Part shown: positions 8,502 through 47,267 of the stretch, in pieces
Layout: each line of letters begins with the position of its first letter
Position numbering within the stretch: the first letter of the stretch is position 1
Assembly: GCA_903923795.1 (NCBI GenBank)
Contig: CAIXYX010000139.1
Location: 1-52,303 of the forward strand
Source: an uncultured Candidatus Micrarchaeota archaeon
GTDB lineage: Archaea; Micrarchaeota; Micrarchaeia; Anstonellales; Anstonellaceae
Direction of reading: 5' to 3'
DNA: 52,303 bases
Made by a program: the position numbers and the translations under genes
The notes under the pieces: generated by a model
Database searches by the model: none
What the model was told of the DNA's origin: nothing
The model's input: the letters and a program-made list of their open reading frames with translations, nothing else

Positions 8502-11237
8502 TCAGCGGCGCTCCCCGAATTCTCGCATGAATCTCTCGTATTCCATCGACTCACTGTCGGTGATGGACGGCCTTCTGCTTCCGACGAGCTGCATCACTTC
8601 CTCCGTCGAGAGGATTGGTTTCTCTTTGCTTATGTGCAGGCGCACGAGGCGAGTTTTCACTTCCTGCGCGACTGACACGAGGTCGGCGCCGGAGAAGCCG
8701 GGCGTCGCTTGGGCGAGGCGGCCGAAGTCGAGTTTCGGCAATAGCGGCGAGAGGGCCTTCTTCAATATCTCCTCGCGGCTCGCAGCATCTGGCGGCGGGA
8801 TATAGAGAATCTTGTCAAAACGGCCCGGGCGCAATAGCGCGGCATCCATCAGAGAGGGCTTGTTCGTGGCGCCGATGATTATGACATTCTTGAGCTCTTT
8901 GAGACCATCCATCTCCTGCAAGAGTTGAGTGAGTATAGGCGAGGAATAACCAGTGCGCGAGGGCGTCAAACTCTCGATTTCGTCGAAGAATATGAGCGCG
9001 GGCGTCTGCTCGCGCGCGCGGTTGAATGTCTCGCGCAGACTCTCTATGGCTGAATCAGAGCCGCCCTTTAGCAAATCTGCGCCGGAGAGCGAGAGGAATG
9101 TTGCGTTGAGCTGGTGAGATGCGGCGCGCACTATCATCGTCTTGCCGCAGCCGGGCGGTCCGAAGAGGAGAAGGCCGCGAATCGGTTTGAGCTGGTATTC
9201 GGCCATGAGTTCTGGGTGAAGAAGAGGAAGCTCGACTGCTTCATGCAATGCTTTTCTAACGTCGCCCAAGCCCACGACATCGTCCCATTTGACTTCGGCA
9301 AGATTAACCTCGGGCGCCTCCTCCTCCACGCGTCTTTCGAAGTCGAGGCGGAATTTCTCATATTCTGCCAAATGCGAGATGTGTGTCGAGGGCTTGAGGT
9401 ATTTTAGCACGGCCAGGAGATTTTTCTGCGAGAGCGCGATGATTTGGTTCTTCGCGGCCGCCTCGCGCGCAGTCTGCCGAATTGCCTCAGTCATGACGTT
9501 GGCCAAGTCCGCGCCGGAGTATCGCTCGGTCATGGAAGCAATCTTCTTGAAGTCGACATCGCCGCCGAGCGGCACGTCTTTGACATGCGAGCGCAATATC
9601 TGCTCGCGGCTGGCCAAGTCCGGCAGAGGCATGTAGATGACTTTGTCAAATCTTCCCGGTCGCAATATGGCGGCATCCAATTTGTTCGGCGCGTTCGTCG
9701 CGCCCATGACGATGACATGCTTTGTGCCAGTCGTCGGCACGCTATCCATCTCCAAAAGGAGCTGGTTCAGCGCAGTGTAATGGGCCGAATTCTCCTCGGA
9801 CATGGAGGAGCGGCTTCGCGCGATGGAGTCTATCTCGTCGAAGAATAGGATACAGGGCGCGTTCTTTCGCGCCGTGGCGAAAAGCTCGGCGATGTTCTTC
9901 TCGGTCTCGCCGAACCATTTCGAGGTGAGGTCAGAGCATTTCACGTAGTAGAAGCCAAGATTCATCTCTTTGGCCAGAGCTTTCATTATGAAAGTCTTGC
10001 CCGTGCCCGGAGGTCCGAAGAGGAGGATGCCGTTTGGCGGCTTGATGCCATATGTGACGGCGAGCTTCTTGTTCGAGAGCGGAGTGACGATGGCTTCGCG
10101 CAATTCGCGCTTGACGCTCTCATATCCGCCAACCTGCGCCAATGACTCCGGCCCGCCGGATGCGGTGGCGAGGTCCTCCACGCCAAGAAATCCGAATTTC
10201 TTTGTCTTCTCCTTGTGCCTCTCGATGCGCTCGCGCGCGATGTCGAGGTGGCCAGCTTCCATCAGGTAGAGAAGGATGAGCGTGAAGGCAGTGTAAATCA
10301 GCATCTCGTAGGGGAATGGAATATTGTACATAGATGCTATTGCGAAATGGGCGAGAGGGATGATGACGATGACCGCACCTGCCATGAGCTGGCGGTGCAC
10401 GCCCTTCACCACGCCGGGGATGTAACCGATGAGGAAGAGGGTGCCGGCCCACGCCAAGAGTTGAAGCAGAGCCGCATCCTCGACCAATAATTTGTAGCTG
10501 TTGTTGGCCACCTGCACGAGAGCCGGATTCACCATGTGGATTGTGTCGGCGCTGATGAGGTTGCCCATTGCGGAAATGGCCGCGGACGGCAAGGCCGCCA
10601 CATCGGGAATCGGCAGTCGGTCGCGCGCGAGCACAAGCTCTCCGCCCGAGGTGAGCGCCGGAGCGTAGATGCTGTTCGCAGGATCAAGGCTTTTGGTGAG
10701 CATGAATGCGGAATTTGGCGTGAGCCACAGAGTCGATAAGAGGAGGATGAAGAACACGGCAGGTAATGAGATGAAGATAGAGCGCTTCGAGCCGCCGTAC
10801 AATGCGCCCAGTGTGAGGCCGAACTGCACGAACCCTCCGAGGAAAATCAGCGGGAATGGGGCGAATGGCGCGCAGATGATGATTTCGAGAAATGATATCA
10901 GATACCAGTCTTTGAAAGCTTTGAAGAGCGTGAGACTGATGATTAGAGTATACAGCCAGGCAAAGATGGGCGCCTGGTACGCGATGGCGGGAAAGGCGAG
11001 AAGAACGCCCAAGATGGTGCCGACAAACGGGTGCTCGGGCAATGCATATGCAAGGATTCCGCATGCGCCGGCGAGGATGAAGGTGAGCCAGACGGGATAG
11101 AAATAGAAGAGGTTGAGGAGAAAGAGTGCACCCAGGAAAATGAGGAGGGCGGGCCATAATGCGTCGTTCTCCTGCAATGTTGCCTGCAGTGCTTTGAGCC
11201 TCGTGCCGCTTAGACTGGCCGGGGGTGCAGACGCCAT
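8502..11237 (-). CDS. Membrane-anchored double AAA+ ATPase (Cdc48/VCP-like D1+D2 fused to an N-terminal polytopic membrane domain)
   Basis: Two AAA modules: GILLFGPPGTGKT...ILFFDEID and GLLLFGPPGCGKT...LIFFDEIE. The first ~370 aa are almost entirely hydrophobic helices. The start is set at ATG 11237 because the ORF-track extension runs into tRNA-Arg. Confidence 0.85.
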   Translation of the reverse strand: MASAPPASLSGTRLKALQATLQENDALWPALLIFLGALFLLNLFYFYPVWLTFILAGACGILAYALPEHPFVGTILGVLLAFPAIAYQAPIFAWLYTLIISLTLFKAFKDWYLISFLEIIICAPFAPFPLIFLGGFVQFGLTLGALYGGSKRSIFISLPAVFFILLLSTLWLTPNSAFMLTKSLDPANSIYAPALTSGGELVLARDRLPIPDVAALPSAAISAMGNLISADTIHMVNPALVQVANNSYKLLVEDAALLQLLAWAGTLFLIGYIPGVVKGVHRQLMAGAVIVIIPLAHFAIASMYNIPFPYEMLIYTAFTLILLYLMEAGHLDIARERIERHKEKTKKFGFLGVEDLATASGGPESLAQVGGYESVKRELREAIVTPLSNKKLAVTYGIKPPNGILLFGPPGTGKTFIMKALAKEMNLGFYYVKCSDLTSKWFGETEKNIAELFATARKNAPCILFFDEIDSIARSRSSMSEENSAHYTALNQLLLEMDSVPTTGTKHVIVMGATNAPNKLDAAILRPGRFDKVIYMPLPDLASREQILRSHVKDVPLGGDVDFKKIASMTERYSGADLANVMTEAIRQTAREAAAKNQIIALSQKNLLAVLKYLKPSTHISHLAEYEKFRLDFERRVEEEAPEVNLAEVKWDDVVGLGDVRKALHEAVELPLLHPELMAEYQLKPIRGLLLFGPPGCGKTMIVRAASHQLNATFLSLSGADLLKGGSDSAIESLRETFNRAREQTPALIFFDEIESLTPSRTGYSSPILTQLLQEMDGLKELKNVIIIGATNKPSLMDAALLRPGRFDKILYIPPPDAASREEILKKALSPLLPKLDFGRLAQATPGFSGADLVSVAQEVKTRLVRLHISKEKPILSTEEVMQLVGSRRPSITDSESMEYERFMREFGERR

Positions 11238-28204: not shown

Positions 28205-28340
28205 GGTCTGCTAGTGGATGGCGGGATTTATTATTATGATTATCCGGCCGCGCTCCCCGAGGCGAAAAAACGATGATACCGGGCGTGAATGTGCGGCTGG
28301 AACAACATTTTAGTATGGGCAATTCGCCCACACTATAGCC

Positions 28341-28350
28341 TTTTATATTA
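28341..28350 (+). promoter_or_regulatory. TATA box candidate for the giant protease gene (leaderless)
   Basis: TTTTATATTA is centred about 24 nt before ATG 28370. Confidence 0.45.
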
Positions 28351-28369
28351 CAAAACAGACGTATATACC

Positions 28370-31300
28370 ATGTCTGTTTCCAAAGATTCGCGCTTTGGCC
28401 ATCTACGTTTAGGAATAGTCGTTTTGCTCGGCCTCCTGCTCCTCGCACCAGTCATACTCGCCGCAGATGCACCCGCTCTCGCCGCATCGAATCCAGCCGG
28501 CGCCGCATCCGGACTTGCGGGCCGGATTGCCACCCAAACACAGGCAGGCCAGAACAATTCGAGCGGCCAGAATATTTCGGGCGGATTCGATTATTATGTC
28601 ATCAGATACTCCGAGCCGCCCGGAACCGCCCAAATCACCCAAATCCAAAACGCGGGCTTCGACATCATCGGCTACTCGAGCGGATTTCGATATATCGTTC
28701 GCAAAACCGCAGACGGCTCGAAACTCATATCAGCGCCAAAAATCCCGAATGCCGCCATAGAGAGATTCGCCTCTGCAGGCCTCGCGCCGCAGCTGACGAA
28801 TTTCACTGGCAAAAAGAACATCACCATACAATTCTTTCCAAGAGAGGATACGGCCGCCCTCTCGGCGAAAGTCCGCGCGATCGCCCCATCCGCACGCCCA
28901 ATCGACGTAGGCATGACGGCCGATGGCGTGAATCCGGACCAGGTCCGCCGAATCTCGGACACAAGCGGAATACAGTATATCGACGAAAACCTCCCGCTCG
29001 AAAAATTCGACAACCGCACCACGCAGATATTGGGCGCGAACCAGGTATGGGACAACCTCGGCTACACCGGAGCGGGAGTAGTGGTGGCGGTGGAGGACAC
29101 CGGCCTTGACACAGGAAACCTGTCCACCATCCACCAAGACCTGCGCGGGCGCGTGATAAATCTCACTGGGTATTGCAGCACAAATCTCAACGGCAGGGAC
29201 TATGAGGGCCATGGCACGCACGTGGCAGGCATAGCGGTTGGCAATGGCACGCTGAATCTCACAAACAAGGGCACTTCACCTGGGTCGCAACTGGTTTTTC
29301 AGGCACTCGGCTGCGCGCCGGGCGGAGGCGGGAGCACATCTACCGGCACGATAAGTCTTTTTAGATTAGCCAGTGGATTTGGCGCGCAGGTGCACACGAA
29401 TTCGTTTGGCAGCATTGTCGTCGGAAATCCGTATTACGGCACCACGGCCTCAAGCGTTGATGCGTACACCCGCAACGAGAACCCGAACATAACAATATTC
29501 TACGCCGCGGGCAACAGCGGACCTGACGCATTGTCAGTCACTCTCTCAAGCGTGGGGAAAAATATTGTGTCGGTCGGCAATGTGTATGGATACGGCGTGC
29601 CGTATTATCTCGATAACACTTCCAGCCACGGACCAGCCACAGACGGCAGGATCAAACCGGACTTGGTGGCTCCCGGAGACGGGATCTGGTCTACTTGCGT
29701 CGGCGGAGGATATTGCATGATGAGCGGGACTTCGATGGCCTCGCCCGCAGCCGCAGGTTCGGCTGCGCTGGTATATGATTATTTGGCGAGAAATCGGAGC
29801 TATTCAAGACCGAGCTCGGCGCTTGTGCGCTCGATCCTCATCGCAGGGGCAGAGCGGATCGGAACCCCGATCTACGGACCGATCCCGAACAACATAGTCG
29901 GGTTTGGCATGATCAATCTCACACGCTCGCTGGCGATCATGCGCGGATATCAGATGGATTACTCTGACTCGCAGTATCCGCTTGAGACCGGGCAGAGCGC
30001 AGCATTCTCATACACAGTCAACAATTCCAATATCCCGCTGCGTGTGGCCCTCGTCTGGACCGATCCGGCATGCACCGACGTGTACGGCACGTGCAATTCC
30101 ACGGCGCTCATAAATGATCTGGACCTCAAAGTGATAGGCCCGGATGGAAGCTGGCTGCTTGGAAACAACCAGACAGCGAATTCGACCACTGCAGATAGGA
30201 GAAATGTCATCGAGATGGCCGACATAGACTACCCGGCGCTTGGGACATACACAGTCAACGTGAGCGCGTATTCGGTCCCGTCCGGCAACCAGACATTCGC
30301 CCTGGCAGTCATTCGCGGAACTGGCCCGGGAGATTATGATAACGCAAACCGGACGATAATCCCGACATTTGACAATAGCCTGATCACGAACTTGACGTCC
30401 ACATCATTCGTCATGAACTGGTGGACCATCAATGTCGTATCGAACAGCTCGGTCAAATACAGGGCCATGCTGGTCAACCGCACGACTGGATATGTCTGCG
30501 CATTTACTGATTATCTTTATGCGACAAATTCGAGCATGGTGGGCATACACACCATACCCGTGACATCGCTCTCTCCGAACACTCTATACTATGTCACGAT
30601 AAAATCATGCTCTGCCTCCGGAGGCTGCAATGAGAGCACGCTGACACGTGACGGCCAGACGCTGGTTCTCACCACACAGGCGATTTCGGCCCCGTCAAAC
30701 AGCAATATCGCCTCGAGCCAGATAACTTATCAGAGCGCGCAGATAGGCTGGAATACCAACATCTCGGCGAACGCATCTGTCAAATACAAGGCGTCAGGAG
30801 ACGCGTCGTGGAGCTATGCAACAGATTCAGGCATGGCGAGCGCACACAACATCTCGCTTACGTCCCTCTTGGGCAGCACGACATACATATACACAGTCAA
30901 ATCATGCGTCGAGGGCGGCATGGCCAACACCTGCGGCTCGAATCCGCTCTGCACCGAGAGCGCGGAATCGAGTTTCACCACGCCCCCCGCGCCGGTCATC
31001 TACCCGAACCTCTCCTCCGTCTCGGCGAGCCAGATAACTTATCAGAGCGCGCAGGTGAATTGGGCGAGCGATGCGGCGGCGAACTCAACAGTCAAATACA
31101 AGCCATTAGCGGGCTCGGATTGGCTCTATGCTTACAATTCGAGCCTTGCGCTCGCGCACACAATGCAACTCTCCTCGCTTGCGGCAAACACCACATACTC
31201 ATACACGGTGAAATCATGCACAACATCTGGCGGATGCAATGAAAGTGATGAGCAGAATTTCACAACATCCCCACCGCCACCGCCAGTCCTCTCGCTCATC

Positions 31301-34300
31301 AGTGCAAACCAGATAACGAACCAGAGCGCGCAGATAAGCTGGCTGAGCGACCTCGCCGCCGATAGCACAGTCAAATTCAGGCCATCCGACAGCTCCACCT
31401 GGGCATATGCCACAGATGCAAGCATATCGACTGGCCATGCGCTCGCGCTCACCTCACTCTCCCCAAGCACACTCTATATCTATACCGTCAAATCATGCAC
31501 TGCTCTTGGCGGCTGCACAGAGAGTAGTGAGCAGAATTTCACAACATCACAGAATTATCCCGCGCTCTCTGCCATCTCGGCCGGCAGCATAACGGCGAAT
31601 TCGGCCAATGTGACATGGAATACGGATATGCGGGCCAATGGCACGCTCAAATACCGCGCATCATCAGACTCGTCATGGTCATATCTCTATGATTCGGACA
31701 TGACATCTGCGCACAACATCACCCTCTCGTCTCTTTCCGCCAGCACGCTCTATATATACACAGTAAAATCATGCTCCGAGTCCGGCGGGTGCACCGAGAG
31801 CGGCGAATTAAATTTCACCACGCTGGCCATCTATCCGAACCTCTCAGGCATCATGGTGTGGGGCATAACCCAGAATTCATCGAACATCTCATGGAACACC
31901 GACGCTTTGGCAAACAGCACGGTGAAATACAAGGCATTAGGCGCGTCGAATTGGGCATATGCCACCAACTCGAGCATGGTGAACGCGCACAACATCACCC
32001 TCTCCTCGCTCTCTGCGAGCACGGCATACACGTACACCGTCAGATCATGCACAGAGTCAGGCGGATGCACGGAGAGCGGCGAATTAAATTTCACGACCTC
32101 GGCGCCTCCAGCCGTATATCCGGTCCTCTCGTCGATATACGTAAGCCAGATAACGTATCAGAGCGCGCAGGTGAATTGGGCCAGCGATGTCACTGCCAAT
32201 AGCACTGTGAAATACAAACCTGCCGGCAGCCAGAATTGGCTCTATATGTATGCTTCTAGCTTCTCGACTTCGCATAATCTGACTCTCTCATCTCTTTTTG
32301 CCAGCACGCTCTACATATACACGGTGAAATCATGCACATCATCTGCGAATTGTAATGAGAGCGGTGAATTCAATTTCACCACAGGGGCCGCCCCGATCAT
32401 CCCGGTTATCTCCGCCATCTCGATAAGCCAGATAACGAACCAGAGCGCGCAGGTGAATTGGGCCAGCGATGTGGCGGCGAATAGCACACTCAAATACCGC
32501 CAGAGCCAAGACTTGGATTGGGCATACTCGGCCAACTCGAGCATGTCAACCGCGCACAATATCTCACTCGCCTCCCTCTCGGCCAACACCACGTATATCT
32601 ACACGGTAAAATCCTGCTCATCGAGCGGAGGCTGCAGTGAGAGCGTGGAGGCGAACTTCACCACGCTTGCCACATACCCGATTATCTCCAGCATCACCGT
32701 TTCGAGTATCACCTCGAACTCATCGGTGATAGCCTGGAACACAGACTTCGCGTCCAATAGCACGGTCAAGTTCAAGGCATCTGGCGCAGGCGCGTGGACT
32801 TATCTCTCGAACTCAAGCTACTCGCTCGCGCACAGCATCTCTCTCGCAGCTCTAGCACCGAACACGCTCTACATATACACAGTGAAGTCTTGCACAGCAT
32901 CAGGCGGCTGCACAGAGAGCGGGGAGGCGAACTTCACCACTTCGCTCACATATCCGATGATCTCCAATATAGTCATCACGAATACCACGTCTAATTCATC
33001 CACCATATTGTGGAGCACAGATATGCTCTCGAATGGCACAATCAAATTCAGGATAGATGGAAGCGGTTCGTGGTCATATACCTCGAATTCCAGCATAACG
33101 CTTGCACACAACATAACCCTCACGCCCCTCATGGACAGCACCACCTACAGATTCACCATCAGATCCTGCTCAGCATCAGGCGGCTGCAGCGAAAGCGTAG
33201 AGTATGGATTCACAACATTATCACCGCCCATCATCTCTCCGATCCTATCGAACATATCGGCGAGCCAGATAACGAACCAGAGCGCACAGGTGAATTGGAA
33301 TACAGATACGACTGCCAATGGCACGCTCAAGTACAGACAGAGCCAAGACTCGAATTGGGTGAGCGTGACGAACTCGAGCGGGTCATTGCAGCACAGCTTC
33401 GGCATCTCTTCGCTCTCGGCCAACACCACGTATATCTACACCGTCAGATCATGCACACAATCAGGTGGCTGCAATGAAAGCAGTGAGGCGAACTTCACCA
33501 CGCTTGCCACATACCCGATTATCTCCAGCATCACCGTCTCGAGTATCACCTCGAACTCATCGATAATAAATTGGAATACAGACTTCGTGTCGAATAGCAC
33601 AGTCAAATTCAAGGCATCTGGCGCCGGCGCGTGGACTTACCTCTCGAACTCAAGCTACTCGCTCGCGCACAGCATCTCTCTCGCATCCATCTCAGCCAAC
33701 ACGTTCTACATATACACAGTGAAGTCTTGCACAGCATCAGGCGGCTGCACGGAGAGCGGGGAGGCGAACTTCACCACCCAGTCGATCTATCCTGCGCTCT
33801 CGAACATCGCCGCGCTCGGCATCACGACAAATTCATCGATAGTGTCATGGAACACCGACATAATATCGAACTCGTCGGTGAGATACAAGGCGTCTGGGGC
33901 GTCATCATGGAGTTATGTTTCAGATGCCAGCCCAGCATTCTCGCACAGCATCGGCCTCACCCAATTGACCCCGAGCACCACGTATATTTACACAGTAGAG
34001 TCGTGCACGGCCTCCGGAGGATGCAATGAGAGTATCGAGCTCAACTTCACCACAGCGACTCCTATCGCCTACCCGAACCTCACCGCCATTTGGGCAGGCA
34101 ATATAACTTACCAAAGCGCGCAGATCAATTGGTTGAGCGATGTAGCAGCGAACGCATCCGTGAAATACAGGCAGGCCATGGACCCGAACTGGTTCTATTC
34201 ATACAACTCAAGCCTCGCACTTTCGCACAACATCTCACTCGCGTCGCTTATGGCCAACACCACATATCTCTACACAGTGAAATCCTGCTCGGCCAGCGGA

Positions 34301-36835
34301 GGCTGCACGGAGAGCGGCCAATTCAACTTCACGACCTTGCCGCTGCCTATAATTTACCCAATTCTGTCGAACATAACAGTGAACCCGATAACTGATTCGG
34401 GCGCGCAGGTGAATTGGAACACTGACAAGCAATCAAACGGCAGCGTCAGATACAGGCTGAGCAGTGACTTTACATGGACATATCTTCCTGACCCGAACAT
34501 GCTGGTTGCGCATAGATTCTCGATCCCCGCATTGACGGCCAGTTCGACATATATCTACACCGTGAAATCCTGCGTGCCGATGGGAGGATGCAACGAGAGC
34601 AACGAACTCAACTTCACCACATTGGCCACCCCGCCACCCGCCCCGGTGATTTCGAACCTGCAGACACTCAATATCACGAATCAGAGCGCGCAGGTGAAAT
34701 GGTCCACCAGCCCGCAGGCCAACGCATCAGTCAAATACAAATCATCTTCAGACACGAATTGGTCATACGTCTCGAGCGGCGGATTCTACTATTCACGCAC
34801 AATACAACTGTCCTCTCTCGTGTCAAACACGACATATTTCTACACAGTCAAATCGTGCACTGCGGCAGGCGGATGCACTGAGAGCAACCAGTACAACTTC
34901 ACCACGCTGGCCACTCAGATAGTCTATCCTTCCCTCTCCGCCATCTCCTCGAGCCAGATAACGTATCAGAGCGCGCAGGCGAATTGGTTAAGCGACGTGG
35001 CAGCGAACGGCACAGTTAGGTACAAACCAGCCTCGAGTTCTGATTGGCTCTATGCATACAACTCGAGCCTCGCGCTCGCACACAACTTGTCTCTTGTGTC
35101 CCTCTCGGCAAACACATTATACACATACGCGGTCGAATCATGCACCCCGTCCGGCGGCTGCGCCCTGAGCTCTCAATACAATTTCACCACGCTCGCCGCG
35201 CCAGTCATCTACCCCAACATCTCTGGCGTAACTACAAGCCAGATAACAAACCAGAGCGCGCAGGTGGATTGGTACACCGACGCCTCATCGAATAGCACCG
35301 TAAAATACAGGCAAAGCGGCGGATTGTCATGGGAATATGCATCAGATAACGGCAATACGGCCTCGCACAGTATCCCGCTCGCCTCCCTGACGGCTGATTC
35401 TGATTACATATACACAGTCAAATCATGCACACCGTCGGGCGGATGCAACGAGAGCGCGGAATACGACTTCACCACGCGTGCCACTCCCACTCAGAACGTC
35501 ATCCTAATAGGCGTGCAGACCGGCGTGATAACCAACAACAGCGCACATATTTCCTGGAAGACGAATATAGAATCTGACAGCACAGTCAGATTCAAGGCAA
35601 CCGGCAGCACGGGATCTGAGTATATCACGAATTCGAGCCAGATACTGACCCATGACATCCTGCTCTCGTCCCTCACGCCGGCCACGAATTACACATATAC
35701 CGTGAGATCATGCACTTTGGGCGGGATATGCAATGAAAGCCCGGCATTCGCATTCACCACTAGCTCGCAGCCGAGTGCCCCGGCAATCCGCGCGATATAC
35801 GCAGACCAGATCACCAACCAGAGCGCGCAGATAATTTGGATAACAAACAATTTCACGAATGCGACAGTGAAATACCGCGCGGCCTCGGGCTCGGATTGGC
35901 TCTACGCATCCAACTCCAACCTATTATGGCTGCACAACATCTCGCTATCATCACTCTCAAGCGGCACGAATTACATCTACACCGTGAGATCCTGCAGCCT
36001 GCAGGGAGCCTGCGCCGAGAGTTCTGAGAACAGCTTCATGACCAACTATTCGGTTGCCATCTCCCCTCTCCTCTCAAGCAGCACGGCCAGCAATATAACA
36101 AACCAGAGCGCGCAGATAAGTTGGAACACCGACACGCCATCCAATAGCACGGTCAAATACAGGCCTAGGGCCAGCAGCGCAGATTGGTCATACGCTGGAG
36201 ATGCCACTCAAACAGCTGCGCACTTAGTCCTCATCTCCTCGCTGTCGGCCAATGCGACCTATGCGTACACTATCAGATCATGCACGCCATCTGGAGGCTG
36301 CAATGAAAGCGCAGAGAATAATTTCACCACGCTGGCCAATTATCCCGGCCTCGGCTCGTTTGTGATAAGCACCATGCCTGCCGGAGCTCTTGTGCAGGTG
36401 AGGAATAACATATCGACAACGTGGTTATACTCCGGCACCTCCCCGTTATATGCCCAAAACGTGCCGACCGGGCATTACATGGCATATATGACAGATGACG
36501 GCTATAGATCATTTGTGTCTTATTTTGACATCTATTCCGACCAACAGACGAACGTCAGCGTGCCGCTCACGCCTCTGCCGGTCTATGACCAATCCGTCAA
36601 CGGCTCTATCGTGGTCTATGCAGAACCCGAAGGGGCACTGATTAGGATGAGAAGCAGGAATGTCTCGGCGGGCTGGCTCTACTCGGGAAGCTCCCCGATG
36701 AACATGAGCAGCATCCTGCCCGGGGATTATGTTGTGTTCGCATCAAAAGAGCATTATCCGACGAAGACTGTTTTCGCGCACGTGACTGCGGGGCAAGCCA
36801 CAGTGCTCAACATCACGCTGGTGAAATTGAATTGA
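28370..36835 (+). CDS. Giant secreted S8 subtilisin-like serine protease with P/PPC-like domain, about 21 FN3-like repeats and two C-terminal PEGA domains
   Basis: Signal peptide MSVSKDSRFGHLRLGIVVLLGLLLLAPVILAADA. The catalytic triad motifs are VAVEDTGLD, HGTHVAGIA and SGTSMASPAAAG. The repeats follow, then AEPEGALIRM-type PEGA modules. There is no C-terminal TM or sorting signal. Confidence 0.9.
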   Translation: MSVSKDSRFGHLRLGIVVLLGLLLLAPVILAADAPALAASNPAGAASGLAGRIATQTQAGQNNSSGQNISGGFDYYVIRYSEPPGTAQITQIQNAGFDIIGYSSGFRYIVRKTADGSKLISAPKIPNAAIERFASAGLAPQLTNFTGKKNITIQFFPREDTAALSAKVRAIAPSARPIDVGMTADGVNPDQVRRISDTSGIQYIDENLPLEKFDNRTTQILGANQVWDNLGYTGAGVVVAVEDTGLDTGNLSTIHQDLRGRVINLTGYCSTNLNGRDYEGHGTHVAGIAVGNGTLNLTNKGTSPGSQLVFQALGCAPGGGGSTSTGTISLFRLASGFGAQVHTNSFGSIVVGNPYYGTTASSVDAYTRNENPNITIFYAAGNSGPDALSVTLSSVGKNIVSVGNVYGYGVPYYLDNTSSHGPATDGRIKPDLVAPGDGIWSTCVGGGYCMMSGTSMASPAAAGSAALVYDYLARNRSYSRPSSALVRSILIAGAERIGTPIYGPIPNNIVGFGMINLTRSLAIMRGYQMDYSDSQYPLETGQSAAFSYTVNNSNIPLRVALVWTDPACTDVYGTCNSTALINDLDLKVIGPDGSWLLGNNQTANSTTADRRNVIEMADIDYPALGTYTVNVSAYSVPSGNQTFALAVIRGTGPGDYDNANRTIIPTFDNSLITNLTSTSFVMNWWTINVVSNSSVKYRAMLVNRTTGYVCAFTDYLYATNSSMVGIHTIPVTSLSPNTLYYVTIKSCSASGGCNESTLTRDGQTLVLTTQAISAPSNSNIASSQITYQSAQIGWNTNISANASVKYKASGDASWSYATDSGMASAHNISLTSLLGSTTYIYTVKSCVEGGMANTCGSNPLCTESAESSFTTPPAPVIYPNLSSVSASQITYQSAQVNWASDAAANSTVKYKPLAGSDWLYAYNSSLALAHTMQLSSLAANTTYSYTVKSCTTSGGCNESDEQNFTTSPPPPPVLSLISANQITNQSAQISWLSDLAADSTVKFRPSDSSTWAYATDASISTGHALALTSLSPSTLYIYTVKSCTALGGCTESSEQNFTTSQNYPALSAISAGSITANSANVTWNTDMRANGTLKYRASSDSSWSYLYDSDMTSAHNITLSSLSASTLYIYTVKSCSESGGCTESGELNFTTLAIYPNLSGIMVWGITQNSSNISWNTDALANSTVKYKALGASNWAYATNSSMVNAHNITLSSLSASTAYTYTVRSCTESGGCTESGELNFTTSAPPAVYPVLSSIYVSQITYQSAQVNWASDVTANSTVKYKPAGSQNWLYMYASSFSTSHNLTLSSLFASTLYIYTVKSCTSSANCNESGEFNFTTGAAPIIPVISAISISQITNQSAQVNWASDVAANSTLKYRQSQDLDWAYSANSSMSTAHNISLASLSANTTYIYTVKSCSSSGGCSESVEANFTTLATYPIISSITVSSITSNSSVIAWNTDFASNSTVKFKASGAGAWTYLSNSSYSLAHSISLAALAPNTLYIYTVKSCTASGGCTESGEANFTTSLTYPMISNIVITNTTSNSSTILWSTDMLSNGTIKFRIDGSGSWSYTSNSSITLAHNITLTPLMDSTTYRFTIRSCSASGGCSESVEYGFTTLSPPIISPILSNISASQITNQSAQVNWNTDTTANGTLKYRQSQDSNWVSVTNSSGSLQHSFGISSLSANTTYIYTVRSCTQSGGCNESSEANFTTLATYPIISSITVSSITSNSSIINWNTDFVSNSTVKFKASGAGAWTYLSNSSYSLAHSISLASISANTFYIYTVKSCTASGGCTESGEANFTTQSIYPALSNIAALGITTNSSIVSWNTDIISNSSVRYKASGASSWSYVSDASPAFSHSIGLTQLTPSTTYIYTVESCTASGGCNESIELNFTTATPIAYPNLTAIWAGNITYQSAQINWLSDVAANASVKYRQAMDPNWFYSYNSSLALSHNISLASLMANTTYLYTVKSCSASGGCTESGQFNFTTLPLPIIYPILSNITVNPITDSGAQVNWNTDKQSNGSVRYRLSSDFTWTYLPDPNMLVAHRFSIPALTASSTYIYTVKSCVPMGGCNESNELNFTTLATPPPAPVISNLQTLNITNQSAQVKWSTSPQANASVKYKSSSDTNWSYVSSGGFYYSRTIQLSSLVSNTTYFYTVKSCTAAGGCTESNQYNFTTLATQIVYPSLSAISSSQITYQSAQANWLSDVAANGTVRYKPASSSDWLYAYNSSLALAHNLSLVSLSANTLYTYAVESCTPSGGCALSSQYNFTTLAAPVIYPNISGVTTSQITNQSAQVDWYTDASSNSTVKYRQSGGLSWEYASDNGNTASHSIPLASLTADSDYIYTVKSCTPSGGCNESAEYDFTTRATPTQNVILIGVQTGVITNNSAHISWKTNIESDSTVRFKATGSTGSEYITNSSQILTHDILLSSLTPATNYTYTVRSCTLGGICNESPAFAFTTSSQPSAPAIRAIYADQITNQSAQIIWITNNFTNATVKYRAASGSDWLYASNSNLLWLHNISLSSLSSGTNYIYTVRSCSLQGACAESSENSFMTNYSVAISPLLSSSTASNITNQSAQISWNTDTPSNSTVKYRPRASSADWSYAGDATQTAAHLVLISSLSANATYAYTIRSCTPSGGCNESAENNFTTLANYPGLGSFVISTMPAGALVQVRNNISTTWLYSGTSPLYAQNVPTGHYMAYMTDDGYRSFVSYFDIYSDQQTNVSVPLTPLPVYDQSVNGSIVVYAEPEGALIRMRSRNVSAGWLYSGSSPMNMSSILPGDYVVFASKEHYPTKTVFAHVTAGQATVLNITLVKLN
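30371..36332 (+). repeat. About 21 tandem coding repeats of ~92-97 codons (FN3-like, consensus ..ITNQSAQVNW.TD..ANSTVKYR......W.Y...S....HNISLSSLSANTTYIYTVKSCT.SGGC.ES.E.NFTT)
   Basis: Counted from the recurring NFTT-type repeat ends in the translated ORF. The period is about 285 bp. Confidence 0.9.
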
Positions 36836-37064: not shown

Positions 37065-37994
37065 TTAGAGCGCCACTTTCAAGCCCAGCTCTTTCTTCAG
37101 CTCTCTGTAGCGGTTGCGAATCGTCACTTCGGTCACTCCCGCGACATCGGCCACTTCCTTTTGCGTGCGTCTCTCGCCGTTCATGGCCGAGGCGATATAG
37201 ACTGCCGCAGCCGCGACACCGGTCGGGCCTCTTCCGGAAATGAGCCCTTTGGTGATGGCTTTCTTCAGAAGCTGTATGGCCTTCTCCTGCACCTGCCCGG
37301 ACAGTTTGAGGGCTGCGGTGAATTTTGGCACATACTGCGAGGGGTCGGTGAGCGGGACATCCAAGTCCAGCTCGCGGCGCACGAAGCGGTAAGCCCGGCC
37401 GATCTCCTTTTTCTCGATTCCCGAAACGCGGGAGATTTCGTCGAGAGTGCGGGGGATGCCGTGCAGTCTGCACGTGGCATAAATGACGGCCGACACGACA
37501 GACTCGATCAGCCTTCCTCTTATCAGTTCGGCCTTGATGCACTTTCTGTACAAGAGGGCGGCTGATTCACGGAGCGACTCGGGCAGGCCCAAATAGGATG
37601 CTATTCGATCGAGCTCCGAAAGTGCTATGGCCAAGTTTCGCTCCATGCTCGTGGCGATGGAGGCTCTTTTGTGCCATTTGCGCATGCGGTAAAGCTGGGC
37701 CTGTTTTTTCGGAGAGATTTTCGCGCCGCGGATGTCGCGGTTGTACTGGTCAATCTCGGTCACAAGTCCCTTGTTGGGGCGCATGAATTTGATTGGTGCG
37801 CCGCCGCGTGCGCGCTTCTCGCGCTGCTCGGAGTCAAACGCGCGCCACTCGGGGCGGTGGTCCTCGATGTTCTCGGCCACGATGAGCCCGCAATTTGTGC
37901 AGACCACTTCTCCCTTCTCGTAGTCTCTTGTGAGTTTGGCGTTGCCGCATTCGGGGCATTTCTCGATGGGGTTTCGGCTCTTGTCAACGACCAT
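37065..37994 (-). CDS. tfb: Transcription initiation factor IIB (TFB)
   Basis: N-terminal Zn ribbon CPECGN...CTNCG followed by two cyclin-fold repeats. 309 aa. Confidence 0.95.
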   Translation of the reverse strand: MVVDKSRNPIEKCPECGNAKLTRDYEKGEVVCTNCGLIVAENIEDHRPEWRAFDSEQREKRARGGAPIKFMRPNKGLVTEIDQYNRDIRGAKISPKKQAQLYRMRKWHKRASIATSMERNLAIALSELDRIASYLGLPESLRESAALLYRKCIKAELIRGRLIESVVSAVIYATCRLHGIPRTLDEISRVSGIEKKEIGRAYRFVRRELDLDVPLTDPSQYVPKFTAALKLSGQVQEKAIQLLKKAITKGLISGRGPTGVAAAAVYIASAMNGERRTQKEVADVAGVTEVTIRNRYRELKKELGLKVAL

Positions 37995-38234
37995 GGTATC
38001 AACCTCGATTAACGTCCAAGCTAAGGAGCTTTGGGCCCTTAAGCAGGGGGTTATTTTTAAAAATGGGTGAAAAGATAAGCGCCTACCTTATATATAAACT
38101 TTTCGCTCAGCCCGCCTCGTCGTGGAATCGTCGGGCGGCTATTTATGCCGTCGAGAAGAAGTTTGGGCCAGCATTTATAAACTCACCGACGTTGTGGACG
38201 GTGGGCCGAACTCTTTAGAAATGGTAAAATGAAT

Positions 38235-38466
38235 TGCCATGGGGGAGATTTGAACTCCCGGCTTCCAGATTTCCCAAGAAATGCCTTTGTTCGTCATCAA
38301 TCGCGCGCAGAGGCGCGATCTCCGCACTCATATAATCGCAAATACCCCGGAAAGCAGGGAGTTTCCTCCTCATTTCTTTTCTTTTCCGAGGTTTTCTTTT
38401 CTTTCCGCAGAAAGAAAAGAAAAGCTCTATGAGTCTGGCACTCTAGCCAAGCTGAGTTACCATGGC
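38235..38466 (-). tRNA. tRNA-Met/Ile2 (anticodon CAT) with a 157-nt intron at 37/38
   Basis: The 5' exon is GCCATGG TA ACTC AGCTTGGCTA GAGT G CCAGA CTCATA (38466-38428). The 3' exon is A TCTGG AAGCC GGGAG TTCAAAT CTCCC CCATGGC A (38270-38235). The G1-C72 pair and the anticodon stem argue for an elongator rather than an initiator. Confidence 0.75.
38371..38424 (+). repeat. Y1-Y2-loop-R polypyrimidine/polypurine module, copy A (inside the tRNA-Met intron, antisense to it)
   Basis: Y1 is CATTTCTTTTCTTTTCC. Y2 is TTTTCTTTTCTTTC, the loop is CGCA, and R is GAAAGAAAAGAAAA. Confidence 0.8.
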
Positions 38467-38503
38467 AAATTTTTCGCTTGGCTATTTTATTGTCGCGACA
38501 AAG

Positions 38504-38512
38504 CATATAAAA
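38504..38512. promoter_or_regulatory. AT-rich TATA element shared by the divergent tRNA-Met and RNase P RNA genes
   Basis: CATATAAAA (TTTTATATG on the minus strand) is centred ~27 nt before RNase P RNA position 38535 and ~42 nt before the tRNA 5' end at 38466. Confidence 0.45.
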
Positions 38513-38534
38513 GGCCCGTCTGGGCAATATTAGC

Positions 38535-38789
38535 GGAATGGCCGGCGGCCGCCCACGGGGTCCTCCCGAGGAAGTTCTGCCCACGGCGCAAATATCTGGC
38601 GGGCGCAAAAGCCCGTATCTCGGAACAGAAACGATACGACGAGCAGCTCGCTATCAGATGACCCTGAATGGGGATGGAGAGGCTCATCGATGAAACGGCC
38701 GAGATCCACCAGATGGCCGTGCAAGGCGCTTTACGCGCCGCTCAGTCGAATGCGGTTAGAACCAAAGGCAGACTATGGCCGGCCGTTCC
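38535..38789 (+). ncRNA. rnpB: RNase P RNA (small, ~255 nt)
   Basis: A 12-bp terminal helix pairs GGAAUGGCCGGC with GCCGGCCGUUCC. A CR-I-like GAGGAAGUUCUGCC pairs with the 3' GGCAGACU (P4). ACAGAAA and UAGAACC elements and several GC hairpins are present, and there is no credible ORF. Confidence 0.65.
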
Positions 38790-38800
38790 TCATAATCTTC

Positions 38801-38838
38801 ATCTGGCGAAGCCAGATGCTCTTCTCCTTTTCTTTCCC
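38801..38838 (+). terminator. Hairpin plus T/C-rich tract after RNase P RNA
   Basis: ATCTGGC-GAA-GCCAGAT (38801-38817) is followed by CTTCTCCTTTTCTTTCCC. Confidence 0.45.
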
Positions 38839-38868
38839 AGGGGTTTCTTTTCGCGGAGCGAAAAGAAA
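38821..38868 (+). repeat. Y1-Y2-loop-R module, copy B (3' of RNase P RNA)
   Basis: Y1 is CTTCTCCTTTTCTTTCCC. Y2 is TTTCTTTTCGC, the loop is GGA, and R is GCGAAAAGAAA. Confidence 0.8.
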
Positions 38869-39091
38869 GGCCTTGTTACACTTCTTTATATCTTTTTTCA
38901 GGTAATATTTCTTCATGCGTTACGGCTTGGAACCAGATATTTTCCCGCTTTCCACGTCTAATCGCAAGAATAGGAACTTCTTCTGTTTTGCCAGCTGAAT
39001 TCACGGTCCAATAGCTGGCAAACGAATTGGGCCGCCGCAAAAAATTTCGAAGAAAAGAAATATCAAACAAACTCATCCGAGGTGCAGTTCT

Positions 39092-39598
39092 ATGGTCATC
39101 AATAAACAAAATATTGGCGAAACGAAAACCAATTCCGGAATAAAGGGAGAAATTTCGAATAATCCCGCATTGAATTTCTCCAATAAAGCTGTCGAATCCA
39201 CCCAATCGAGAAATCTCTCGAAGGTTTCCCCGTCTGCCGCGGCCGGGGAATTGCGGACTGTCCGCGAAAATCTCACTGCCCAAAACCTGGAGCCGGCAAT
39301 TCAGACTCTAAAAGGGCTGGTGCAGGCATACAAAACAAACGAGGTGCCCAATGCCCTGCTCAACGGCTCAGTAGGCATCGAGGTGAGGGCTCTGGCCAAA
39401 ATCCTGCCGTCCGCCATAAATTCGATGGAACAATGGCTCGCCTCCCTCTCGCCCCTTGGCATGACCGATGACCCCAATTGGCATTTTGACGAGGGCGCAC
39501 GGCTTGGTGATTTGCGCGAGATGCAGAAATCAGTAGATGAACTGAGCAGAGCCATCGACGCAAAGCAGAAGAATAATTCCGCCATTAGCAGATGCTGA
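39092..39598 (+). CDS. Hypothetical protein
   Basis: 168-aa ORF whose ATG is preceded by GAGGTG at 8 nt. AT-richer than the window average. No motif recognised. Confidence 0.5.
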   Translation: MVINKQNIGETKTNSGIKGEISNNPALNFSNKAVESTQSRNLSKVSPSAAAGELRTVRENLTAQNLEPAIQTLKGLVQAYKTNEVPNALLNGSVGIEVRALAKILPSAINSMEQWLASLSPLGMTDDPNWHFDEGARLGDLREMQKSVDELSRAIDAKQKNNSAISRC

Positions 39599-39952
39599 GC
39601 AGTCCTTTGTTTTTCGTTTATTTTCCATTGCGTGTTTTTGTCCATCCTCGTCGCCCGGCCTGTTACACGGCTTTAAATATCCCATCCGCGCAGTTTATTC
39701 TGTCCACCCCCAACGGCCCTATAACTGGGTTTGGGCGCGATGGGCAGGAGGAGAGTGTTATGGCAACGGGTAATCGGTCTGCAATGGCAACCGAGAGTCG
39801 CACATCAGTGTCGCTAAGTGGCACGTCAATGCGCACCATGCCCAAAGGCTATCATCCCTCCATCTGTTTCTGTGATTGGCGATCGGTCCAGTAGTTGGCA
39901 ACGACCTGGGACCCCTGAAACAAACCGGCCCGATGGAACCCCGCAAACCAGA

Positions 39953-40114
39953 ATGGGCGCCGCGGGCCGCAAGTCATTGGACAGGCTGACTGAACAACAA
40001 ATATTGCAGGTGTATTGGTCAGAGCCGCTCTCGTTGCGCGAGATTGCAAAAAGATTCTCGGTGTCGCACATGAGCGTGTGGCGGCTGGTCAGCACCTCGG
40101 CCCGGCCGGTCTGA
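39953..40114 (+). CDS. Small helix-turn-helix protein (possibly a transposase/resolvase-type HTH remnant)
   Basis: LSLREIAKRFSVSHMSVWRLV is a classic HTH. The 53-aa ORF is followed directly by a T-rich tract (ATTTTATTTTTCTTTCTTTTC). Confidence 0.4.
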   Translation: MGAAGRKSLDRLTEQQILQVYWSEPLSLREIAKRFSVSHMSVWRLVSTSARPV

Positions 40115-40192
40115 TATTTTATTTTTCTTTCTTTTCATTTCATGGCCCGGCAGGCAATTGCCTTTAAAATATAGGCTTGCATAGGAAGAACT

Positions 40193-40366
40193 ATGAGCGA
40201 CAAAACAACGATTTCGACCCCGCAGTCGCAGGCCGGCATATTCGGCGTGTCGGCAGGCACCAACATGATGGGCTGGAAGTTTTCCCCCCGCGTGGTCGTG
40301 GCATTCGCGATACTCGTGGTGCTGGTCATCAAGGTGCTGGACTACGTGGTTTACACGAGAAAATAG
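40193..40366 (+). CDS. Sec61 beta / archaeal SecG-like translocon subunit (57 aa, below the ORF-track cutoff)
   Basis: MSDKTTISTPQSQAGIFGVSAGTNMMGWKFSPRVVVAFAILVVLVIKVLDYVVYTRK has a tail-anchored topology and the ..AG.......G.K..P..V pattern. TATA TTTAAAATAT is centred 25 nt before the ATG. Confidence 0.5.
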   Translation: MSDKTTISTPQSQAGIFGVSAGTNMMGWKFSPRVVVAFAILVVLVIKVLDYVVYTRK

Positions 40367-40426
40367 AGGGAACTGCTTTCGTTTATTCAAACAGAAAAAT
40401 AATTAAAACAAGAAAAGAATTTCTTC

Positions 40427-40651
40427 TTAGAAGCGGACACTTGAGCCGGAAGCCCGGCCTGTCAAATGCCCGAGTTTGCCAGTCTCGGCGATAGAAGTGT
40501 TTGATTCCTCAATCTTCTTGTGGTAATCGTCACCGCATGCCCTGCAATAAGTGTGCGTGAATCCGTCCCTGTCGAGGACCTGCACCCGCTCCTTGTAGCT
40601 ATTGATGTCTGTTTTGCATTTTTCGCATTCAAGACTTACCATGCCCATCAC
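40427..40651 (-). CDS. Small zinc-ribbon protein
   Basis: CEKC...CRAC four-Cys arrangement in a 74-aa ORF. Confidence 0.45.
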   Translation of the reverse strand: MMGMVSLECEKCKTDINSYKERVQVLDRDGFTHTYCRACGDDYHKKIEESNTSIAETGKLGHLTGRASGSSVRF

Positions 40652-40738
40652 CGCCTGTATTGACTTCTCGCCGCTTGCATAAATGAGGTGAAATTAAAAA
40701 AACCAATAGATGTCTGATCGCTAAAACCCCCAAAGGCG

Positions 40739-46943: not shown

Positions 46944-47010
46944 AGAGGTACGACGGACTAACGGTTTTTAACAGTTGCGAACTTGGCGCACAAAAAGAAA
47001 ACAAGCGGCT

Positions 47011-47023
47011 AGCCCCCGACGAG
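47011..47023 (-). pseudogene. Orphan tRNA 3'-end fragment (CTCGT CGGGGGC T)
   Basis: The 13 nt are identical to the T-stem 3' strand plus acceptor 3' strand of the half-tRNA at 47101-47135. Module copy C directly precedes it. Confidence 0.6.
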
Positions 47024-47026
47024 CCC

Positions 47027-47070
47027 TTTTCTTTCTCCGAAAGAAAAGTGCTTCACCCCAAAAGAAAGAG
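47027..47070 (-). repeat. Y1-Y2-loop-R module, copy C
   Basis: The minus strand reads CTCTTTCTTTT GGGGTGAAGCAC TTTTCTTTC GGA GAAAGAAAA, then GGGCTC. A CCGGCC-GAA-GGCCGG hairpin (47076-47090) precedes it on that strand. Confidence 0.8.
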
Positions 47071-47100
47071 ATTTGCCGGCCTTCGGCCGGAATTTGATTT

Positions 47101-47135
47101 AGCCCCCGACGAGGATTGAACTCGTGACCTCGTGC
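47101..47135 (-). pseudogene. tRNA-Thr-like 3' half (positions 39-73) with no 5' half in the window
   Basis: GCACG AGGTC ACGAG TTCAATC CTCGT CGGGGGC T. It has the same anticodon-stem strand, variable loop and acceptor strand as the intact tRNA-Thr, but a different T-stem. Confidence 0.65.
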
Positions 47136-47141
47136 GAGCCC

Positions 47142-47190
47142 TTTTTCTTTTCGCGGAAAAGAAAAAGTGCTTCAGCCCAAAAAGAAAAGG
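47142..47190 (-). repeat. Y1-Y2-loop-R module, copy D
   Basis: The minus strand reads CCTTTTCTTTTT GGGCTGAAGCAC TTTTTCTTTTC CGC GAAAAGAAAAA, then GGGCTC, which abuts the tRNA 3' half. Confidence 0.8.
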
Positions 47191-47195
47191 CAATT

Positions 47196-47267
47196 AGCCC
47201 CCGATGGGGATTGAACCCATGACCTCGTGCTTACCATGCACGCGCTCTACCGCTGAGCTACAGGGGC
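47196..47267 (-). tRNA. tRNA-Thr (anticodon GGT)
   Basis: GCCCCTG TA GCTC AGCGGTA GAGC G CGTGC ATGGTAA GCACG AGGTC ATGGG TTCAATC CCCAT CGGGGGC T. This gives a full cloverleaf with no intron. Confidence 0.9.

Follow-up and report, generated by a model that had tools for sequence, protein, structure and literature searches.

Intrastrand triplex motifs (ITxF), or potential intrastrand triplex (PIT) elements (Hoyne and Maher 2000), have been divided into four classes, of which class IV carries its tracts in the order Hoogsteen, pyrimidine (Y), purine (R) and class II in the order Y, R, reverse Hoogsteen (Holder et al. 2015, PMC4666352). The BoxC/TMECO element of Escherichia coli forms a triplex in vitro as isolated single-stranded DNA and is linked to local deletions, rearrangements and instability between strains, and an earlier study cited in the same paper found no promoter, terminator or polymerase effect of E. 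coli PIT elements in vivo (PMC4666352). In RNA, pyrimidine-motif intrastrand triplexes can form but purine-motif triplexes cannot (PMC4666352). Methanomicrobiaceae carry recurrent G-rich repeats of the G-quadruplex or antiparallel triplex type (PMC8044849). Our analysis concerns a four-copy, non-coding hairpin module in a 52,303-base chromosomal segment of a Micrarchaeota (DPANN) archaeon (contig CAIXYX010000139.1; hereafter the window). Each copy (A to D) consists of a third-strand tract (Y1), a spacer, a pyrimidine arm (Y2), a short loop and a purine arm (R). Judged by this order of tracts, which is seen in all four copies, the modules belong to class IV of the PIT/ITxF motifs and their complements to class II. 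A first-pass annotation of the window had proposed a triple-helix structure, which the sequence evidence supports, though it did not recognise that such modules are members of an already described intrastrand triplex class. We did not find an A/T-rich, intron-borne family of intrastrand triplexes described, and Rfam searches of the window and 26 related loci, in gathering and E-value modes, placed no family on any module.

An exhaustive scan of the window for perfect homopyrimidine/homopurine hairpins (arms of at least 8, loops of 3-8) returned exactly four, copies A to D, all of them accompanied by a mirror third tract. In 300 dinucleotide-preserving shuffles the mean was 0.03 hairpin orientations against the 8 observed, and a mirror tract appeared in none; greater frequency than in scrambled sequence, by which PIT/ITxF motifs are recognised, is therefore found here as well. 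The matches of Y1 to the parallel complement of R are exact in every copy (Table 1; we required 8 or more positions and allowed a single mismatch). Y1 and R, when both are read in one direction, have identical run lengths, 3-4-4 in A, 4-3 in B, 3-4 in C and 4-5 in D, and Y2 has them reversed. The spacer between Y1 and Y2 is longest in C and D, at 11 nt, against 5 nt in A (CGAGG) and 6 nt in B, with C and D having a common spacer of the type GGGGTGAAGCAC and a common flank GGGCTC, and the hairpin loops are 3-4 nt long. In the best secondary structure, predicted with ViennaRNA, which models secondary structure and no third strand, Y2 and R form a hairpin that continues, past a G.G or A.G mismatch, into a GC stem of 3 bp; Y1 is left unpaired. 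The Y2/R stem of copy A is a perfect 14 bp above a GAG/CTC lower stem with a G.G mismatch, and its RNA fold reaches -21.3 kcal/mol (z = -4.6). In copy B the lower stem is GGGG..GGCC with G.G mismatches, and the purine tract, reading (GC)GAAAAGAAAGG, spans 38858-38870. Re-reading of the window placed all four copies, with their sequences, where the first-pass annotation had put them, together with the GC hairpins with GAA triloops that precede B and C and the spacer and flank common to C and D.

Because chance would give a third tract equal to Y2 as often as its mirror image, direct third tracts could be used as an internal control. In viral contigs, hairpin-only scans blind to the third tract yielded 282 unique hairpin orientations, mostly without a third tract; where one of 8 nt or longer was present, it was mirror in 11 cases and direct in 4, and irregular mirror matches extended to 16 nt (L084, pattern 4-4-1-3, and L125) and 12 nt (L135; L-numbers denote the related loci compared). 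In metagenomes, a pattern that placed the hairpin TTTTCTTTC/GAAAGAAAA beside either AAAAGAAA (mirror) or AAAGAAAA (direct) retrieved at least 120 loci. Among the matches listed, 114 hairpin orientations comprised 93 mirror, 3 direct and 18 tied cases. When these matches were grouped into sequence families by similarity of spacer, loop and flank, with the tract words masked, 36 families were mirror, 2 direct and 3 tied (sign test, p = 5e-9). Other Y/R hairpins in those loci, which lay outside the pattern selection and include other tract types (CTCTTTTCCTTT/AGAAAAGGAAA and CTTTCTCTT/GAAAGAGAA), gave 25 mirror, 2 direct and 9 ties.

The same correspondence is seen when related copies are compared one by one. 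Two homologous copies 2 kb apart in one contig (L132) have all three tracts exchanged in concert, copy 1 reading TTTTCTTT-G-GTAC-TTTCTTTTC-loop-GAAAAGAAA-GTAC and copy 2 reading TTTCTTTT-G-GTAC-TTTTCTTTC-loop-GAAAGAAAA-GTAC. In the C/D-type subfamily, where the spacer GGGGTGAAGCAC and the flank GGGCTC are constant, the runs are 3-4 and 4-5 in the window, 3-5 in L306 and 2-3-3 in L312, and the spacer and flank of C recur in L312, L306, L283 and L359 with different tract patterns. Copies differ in tract pattern, yet within each the three tracts remain aligned, which indicates that the register itself is selected. To our knowledge, no replication mechanism produces mirror repeats, and rotationally symmetric protein sites are never mirror-symmetric; pairing of a third strand in the major groove would be the sole constraint known to us that predicts the mirror pattern, and we found no alternative that fits. 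Taken at the level of sequence, the interpretation of the tracts as lying in triplex register is strongly supported. Co-variation of the three tracts in a parallel Y•R-Y register, as claimed at the outset, is upheld by the family counts, the unselected hairpins and the swaps in L132 and in the C/D-type subfamily. The L132 contig is phage-like, and each of its intergenic repeats (3769-3815 and 5770-5816, plus strand) is preceded by the palindrome GTGAAACCATGGGTTTCAC.

Another explanation would assign function to the Y2/R hairpin alone, as a helix adjacent to a splice site or as a bidirectional T-tract terminator, with Y1 an unrelated oligo-T/C terminator tract whose likeness to R arose by chance in low-complexity sequence. 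The hairpin does begin at the 5' splice site in most introns that carry it, such that these introns start with GAGC, GAGCCC or GGGC, the 3' flanks of relatives are pyrimidine-rich, and the direct match of copy A (12 nt) falls little short of its mirror match (14 nt). Chance, however, would have mirror and direct tracts occur equally, in contrast to the excess found among families and among unselected hairpins, and it accounts neither for irregular matches of 12-16 nt nor for three tracts that swap together in L132. We consider this explanation highly improbable. Compared with archaeal oligo-T terminators (about five or more T immediately following the gene), Y1 of copy D has T5 and the Y1 tracts of A, B and C only T3-T4.

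Table 1. Positions of the module copies and of neighbouring features in the window.
Feature	Position	Strand	Details
Copy A, Y1 TTTCTTTTCTTTTC	38373..38386	+	parallel complement of R 38411-38424 over 14 nt; unpaired in minimum-free-energy fold
Copy A, hairpin	38388..38427	+	Y2 38392-38405, loop CGCA 38406-38409, R 38410-38424 GAAAGAAAAGAAAAG
Copy B, Y1 CTTTTCTTTCC	38827..38837	+	parallel complement of R 38860-38870 GAAAAGAAAGG; mirror 11 nt, direct 7 nt
Copy B, hairpin	38840..38873	+	Y2 38844-38854, loop GGA, R 38858-38868
GC hairpin CATCTGGC-GAA-GCCAGATG	38800..38818	+	5' of copy B; sequence and predicted fold
Copy C, Y1 CTTTCTTTT	47060..47068	-	parallel complement of R GAAAGAAAA; mirror 9 nt, direct 7 nt
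Copy C, spacer GGGGTGAAGCA and hairpin	47021..47059	-	Y2 47048-47039, loop GGA, R 47035-47026, flank GGCTC
GC hairpin CCGGCC-GAA-GGCCGG	47076..47090	-	5' of copy C; sequence and predicted fold
Copy D, Y1 CTTTTCTTTTT	47179..47189	-	parallel complement of R GAAAAGAAAAA; mirror 11 nt, direct 9 nt
Copy D, spacer GGGCTGAAGCA and hairpin	47136..47178	-	Y2 47167-47156, loop CGC, R 47152-47141, flank GGCTC
tRNA, anticodon CAU by manual reading, about 157-nt intron at 37/38	38234..38467	-	aragorn -i; exons read by hand
Archaeal RNase P RNA	38536..38788	+	Rfam RF00373, 97.2 bits, E = 6e-26
tRNA-Thr (GGU), intact, intronless	47196..47267	-	aragorn and Rfam
Partial tRNA-Thr 3' half (positions 39-73)	47099..47135	-	directly after copy D; repeat family D12, 89% identity
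Third tRNA-Thr 3'-end fragment GTCGGGGGCTA	47010..47020	-	directly after copy C; sequence

We consider it probable that the modules are a duplicative and deletion-prone A/T-rich intrastrand-triplex repeat of non-coding DNA, and that their three-stranded fold is selected, most plausibly as single-stranded DNA. In the single-stranded state, Y2 and R would form the hairpin, and Y1 would fold back via the spacer into its major groove, parallel to R, to give 9-14 consecutive triplets whose bottom is marked by a non-Watson-Crick pair (G.G or A.G). The strand described here would contribute a Hoogsteen tract, a pyrimidine tract and a purine tract (class IV, with T•A-T and C+•G-C triplets), and the complementary strand a pyrimidine, a purine and a reverse-Hoogsteen purine tract (class II, with A•A-T and G•G-C triplets). 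The 11-nt spacer of C and D is long enough sterically, despite exceeding the limits of published searches. Such a DNA fold may arise during replication, transcription or element transfer. The module would be independent of RNase P RNA and of the tRNAs, and would represent a DPANN family that occupies sites a compact genome can tolerate, namely introns of the bulge-helix-bulge (BHB) type in tRNAs (at 37/38, in the T-loop and in the D-loop), a 23S rRNA insertion, tRNA-tRNA spacers, 3' flanks and att-like arrays. We infer that the triplex does form, that DNA is its relevant form and that the repeat is selfish or duplicative rather than host-serving. A closing stem around Y1 (CCTC/GAGG in copy A, with Y1 as a hairpin loop) was also considered; it occurs in some archaeal copies and in no bacterial ones, is sterically incompatible with a full triplex, and was rejected.

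The stable-RNA surroundings ascribed to the copies were located as claimed: copy A lies inside the intron of the 38234-38467 tRNA in antisense orientation, copy B starts 39 nt past the 3' end of the RNase P RNA, Y1 of copy D starts 7 nt past the 3' end of tRNA-Thr, and C and D are inserts in an array made up of repeated tRNA-Thr 3'-end fragments of 36 and 11 nt. Beyond the window, the archaeal copies we found are mostly inside tRNA introns. Those at 37/38 are in L318 Arg-CCU, whose module is nearly identical to copy A, L306 Phe, L340, L359 Ser and L353 Gly; T-loop or T-arm introns carry a module in L046, L293 Gly-UCC, L328 and L366, and a D-loop intron does so in L284 Lys. Excision of the module-bearing segment restores a canonical tRNA (L046, L293, L328, L284 and L366), and by aragorn -i and this removal test the insertions are predicted archaeal BHB introns. 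Other sites are a tRNA-tRNA spacer (L312) and a tRNA 3' flank (L278). A 156-nt insertion with two modules is located in a hairpin loop of archaeal 23S rRNA, at model position about 1224 (L290, about 159-314, rRNA sense on the minus strand).

These contexts share one polarity. In all archaeal homologs examined in a stable-RNA context, the RNA-sense strand is class II (Y-loop-R-spacer-R), and copy A, antisense to its own tRNA, follows this rule; B, C and D, which lie outside mature RNAs, alone have the class IV order when read in the direction of the neighbouring RNA gene. Transcripts of the introns and spacers therefore carry only the purine motif, which is reported to be unable to form in RNA, and this suggests that the selected fold is mainly one of single-stranded DNA. 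It also suggests counter-selection of RNA triplexes within precursors. The uniform orientation could reflect selection against a very stable U•A-U triplex in a precursor that must be spliced, or inheritance from one intron family.

A rival explanation for the modules is an RNA triple helix, in which a Y1-Y2-R transcript with U•A-U and C+•G-C triplets would cap or terminate the RNase P RNA and tRNA-Thr trailers in the manner of the MALAT1/PAN ENE. Copies B, C and D lie just 3' of the RNase P RNA and tRNA-Thr genes and point the same way as these; G.U, G.G and G.A, the non-canonical pairs that close the stem, fall on the same strand; and the genome encodes an exosome (an RNase PH pair). The order of U-rich, U-rich and A-rich tracts followed by tRNA-like sequence recalls MALAT1, in which an A-rich tract is found just upstream of a tRNA-like structure (for a review, PMC13541005). 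The pyrimidine motif is, moreover, the one able to form in RNA (PMC4666352). Set against this, copy A and all examined homologs in introns, spacers and the rRNA insertion are antisense, such that their transcripts are the purine-motif strand; the hairpins are missing from two relatives (L001 and L002) that do possess tRNA-Met and RNase P RNA; the trailers of tRNAs are discarded; no 5' acceptor strand is present in the tRNA fragments that follow C and D, so that RNase P cleavage is not expected; and Rfam detects no ENE or other family. We therefore think an RNA function of this kind unlikely as an explanation of the family. It is possible for the trailers of RNase P RNA and tRNA-Thr: of the four copies, B, C and D alone could give a U•A-U / C+•G-C triplex in RNA, and this would require read-through into the trailer. 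A variant that joined a MALAT1-like triplex to an RNase P site was ruled out on account of the missing acceptor 5' strand of the fragments and the wrong orientation in most homologs. The role in 3'-end protection, termination or processing that the first-pass annotation had entertained is poorly supported, given a close relative (L001) that lacks both hairpins and archaeal RNA-context homologs that are class II in the transcript.

Comparison of close relatives bears on whether the modules serve their host. The TFB gene of the window (37065-37994) retrieves 80 Micrarchaeota loci at 68-98% identity. In the closest of these (L001, TFB 98%), the block containing tRNA-Met and RNase P RNA is 82-93% identical, and the Y2-loop-R hairpins of A and B are absent from the orthologous sites, where short Y1-like remnants are found (TCTT-GGGG-CTC in the intron and CTTTCTCCCAAG after RNase P). 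A second relative (L002) has the same tRNA-Met and RNase P RNA with both modules wholly absent. The modules are thus dispensable for tRNA-Met and RNase P RNA, and they are unstable. The Micrarchaeota loci surrounding TFB, 1.15 Mb in total, contain only two similar modules (L043 and L046). The tRNA-Met/RNase P block itself is inverted relative to TFB in L001 (8799-9313) compared with the window (38226-38793) and L002.

A host-serving H-DNA or intrastrand triplex at highly transcribed stable-RNA genes, acting on supercoiling, polymerase passage or encounters between replication and transcription, has several features in its favor. The archaeal copies we found concentrate in or beside tRNA, rRNA and RNase P genes (a count taken without a background rate), Y1-spacer-Y2 is a textbook homopyrimidine mirror repeat, and intron copies all have one strand orientation with respect to transcription. 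The modules are, however, dispensable between close relatives, and H-DNA requires two tracts only, which gives no reason for a third one on that strand. The relatives in bacteria and phages are in ordinary intergenic regions and in both orientations, and E. coli PIT elements have no promoter, terminator or polymerase effect in vivo (PMC4666352). On balance we judge a host-serving role improbable. The relatives that we checked by hand (n = 3) comprise two that are class II in the sense of the gene (L280 and L313) and one that is class IV (L125), in which the module lies 30 nt upstream of the ribosome-binding site; an automatic test of orientation against open reading frames (ORFs) on bacterial loci was too noisy in high-GC DNA. 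Among the options raised by the first-pass annotation, a small mobile module that targets RNA genes best fits the evidence.

Two further repeat groups were noted among the relatives. In L280, a structured intergenic repeat of about 190 nt ends in a triple-tract module (560-760 and 2570-2765, plus strand). About 28 metagenome loci resemble it, on human-gut contigs with a GC content of about 0.6 that are apparently from Clostridia, for example between ybeY and era. The repeat has a conserved G.T pair below the tract and a second tract variant (CTTTCTCTT/GAAAGAGAA) in the same genomes, and Rfam contains no match to it. A further family (L257, L292, L345, L252, L260, L329, L339 and L232) has the form CCTTGAT-TTTCTTTTG-CCTTCTTTTCTTTC-ATCAAGG-AAAGAAAAGAAGG, with a hairpin loop complementary to the 7 nt that precede the third tract, and may combine a pseudoknot with a triplex.

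Several points weigh against a selected single-stranded DNA triplex of selfish character. Formation of C+•G-C triplets requires protonation of cytosine. The case for the triplex is made entirely from sequence covariation, and in E. coli the TMECO triplex was undetected in duplex DNA or in vivo (PMC4666352). The uniform orientation in introns could have been inherited from one spreading intron family and, because of this, the orientation count of about 18 versus 3 does not represent independent events. The non-canonical pair at the stem base is G.T, G.G or A.G on the class IV strand and A.C, C.C or C.T on its complement, which favors folding of the class IV strand, that is, the template strand in introns; this strand is not obviously single-stranded more often. 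Copies within one genome are more divergent than is usual for recent transposon copies, no transposase or integrase was linked to the modules, and the bacterial and phage relatives are found in both orientations relative to genes.

The surroundings of the copies contain further features. The 38234-38467 tRNA was undetected by default aragorn and by Rfam, E-value mode included, and the anticodon call of aragorn -i (Ser-cga) differs from CAU. The 3' part of this tRNA-Met intron is conserved (window about 38272-38330, minus strand; L001 8830-8880; L002 about 9530-9570), carries TGATGA, which resembles a box C, reaches the splice junction with ..ATCTGG, and may be a putative intron-encoded C/D-box guide. 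About 20 nt from the edge of copy B, on the minus strand (38884-38892), there is a TATA-box-like ATATAAAG with an A-rich upstream element, which resembles the RNase P promoter (ATATAAAA at about 38505); this candidate promoter could give a transcript that enters copy B in antisense to RNase P RNA. The 1.8 kb that separate copy B from the MscL gene (38870-40700) are of lower GC, and a Pfam search of the ORFs beside copy B and in this interval gave no match. GC skew was uninformative as to whether a switch in replication direction between B and C caused their opposite orientations. A single ORF of 2848 aa occupies 28289-36835 (plus strand), and housekeeping genes of the window include RadA, MscL, a Nudix hydrolase, a phosphoglucosamine-mutase-type enzyme, an epimerase and PurA. 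The 47099-47135 fragment shows compensatory T-stem changes compared with intact tRNA-Thr. A similar array after tRNA-Thr in L004 (17640-17790) shares these changes, with the same CTCGT T-stem fragment, and has other hairpin inserts. The array in the window looks like an att-type recombination site, att scars or a small cassette array. An origin of the C/D spacer from the tRNA-Thr anticodon loop was ruled out, as the spacer is also found in modules in or beside other tRNA genes (L306, L312 and L359).

Intrastrand triplex repeats have been known since 2000 without an accepted function, and the A/T-rich ones have mostly been dismissed as chance. The combination of a changing tract pattern with a constant register provides evolutionary evidence for selection on a three-stranded register, and the modules add an A/T-rich, intron-associated archaeal variant to the known intrastrand-triplex class. 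Through their link to introns at various positions of tRNA and rRNA, the modules give a way into the question of how BHB introns spread. In practical terms, the modules hide intron-containing tRNAs from default tRNA finders and mark rearrangement-prone sites in DPANN genomes. A bolder and doubtful extension is that the three-stranded fold is the functional core of an unrecognised mobile or self-propagating class that comprises DPANN BHB introns and mini-cassettes with cousins in gut Clostridia and phages, whose spread or persistence would depend on a paperclip helix of 9-14 triplets, whether of single-stranded DNA or of an antisense or trailer transcript. Should the fold exist in RNA, archaea would have yielded their first long U•A-U / C+•G-C triple helices, and the ENE would gain a prokaryotic counterpart.

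Among the known systems, a MITE (miniature inverted-repeat transposable element) or other transposon is a poor match, as the copies differ in tracts and spacers and have no terminal inverted repeats, and no transposase was seen; the tRNA-Thr 3'-end repeats of 11 and 36 nt that flank C and D are att-like rather than like target-site duplications. The modules have the sequence potential for H-DNA: in each of the four copies Y1 reads as Y2 reversed, so that the two tracts and the short spacer between them make up a homopyrimidine mirror repeat. For H-DNA, however, a duplex mirror repeat suffices, and the inverted copy R that the modules add on the same strand points to single-strand folding instead. 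With the ENE and MALAT1 they share two U-rich strands around an A-rich strand and U•A-U and C+•G-C triplets. In the ENE, a U-rich internal loop in a stem captures a 3' tail, whereas here a 5' tract would fold onto a simple hairpin with no internal loop; there is no Rfam match, copy A and its intron homologs are antisense to the transcript, and most members of the family are transcribed in the orientation that is unable to form an ENE-type RNA triplex. The Methanomicrobiaceae repeats are likewise archaeal, non-coding and foldable as a hairpin plus third strand, but are G/C-rich and intergenic, have an antiparallel G-rich third strand and a competing G-quadruplex, and belong to another phylum.

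The closest likeness is to the PIT/ITxF elements, which also have three consecutive tracts per strand, arranged Hoogsteen-Y-R (and Y-R-reverse Hoogsteen on the opposite strand), are multi-copy and non-coding, vary in presence and by small deletions among close strains, and have no explained function. They differ in being G/C-rich, whereas the window modules are A/T-rich with isolated C or G. The first loop of the modules, at 5-12 nt, also compares with published limits of 1-6 (ITxF) and 0-10 (Hoyne), and because the spacers of C and D exceed both, published searches for PIT/ITxF would miss these two copies. The window type is found in archaeal tRNA and rRNA introns, spacers and arrays of tRNA 3' fragments, while the description of the known class mentions neither tRNA nor introns (PMC4666352), and the support for the window type is three-way covariation rather than biophysics. 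BoxC/TMECO has the same paperclip topology (class II on one strand), is dispersed and is tied to local rearrangement. It is, however, a G•G-C purine motif of proteobacteria only, with one fixed tract sequence and no sequence similarity to the modules, and the T/A-rich window tracts with single C or G do not fit its consensus, CCCTCNCCC N3-6 GGGNGAGGG N3 GGGNGAGGG. Unlike BoxC, the modules vary their tract pattern from copy to copy and keep the register.

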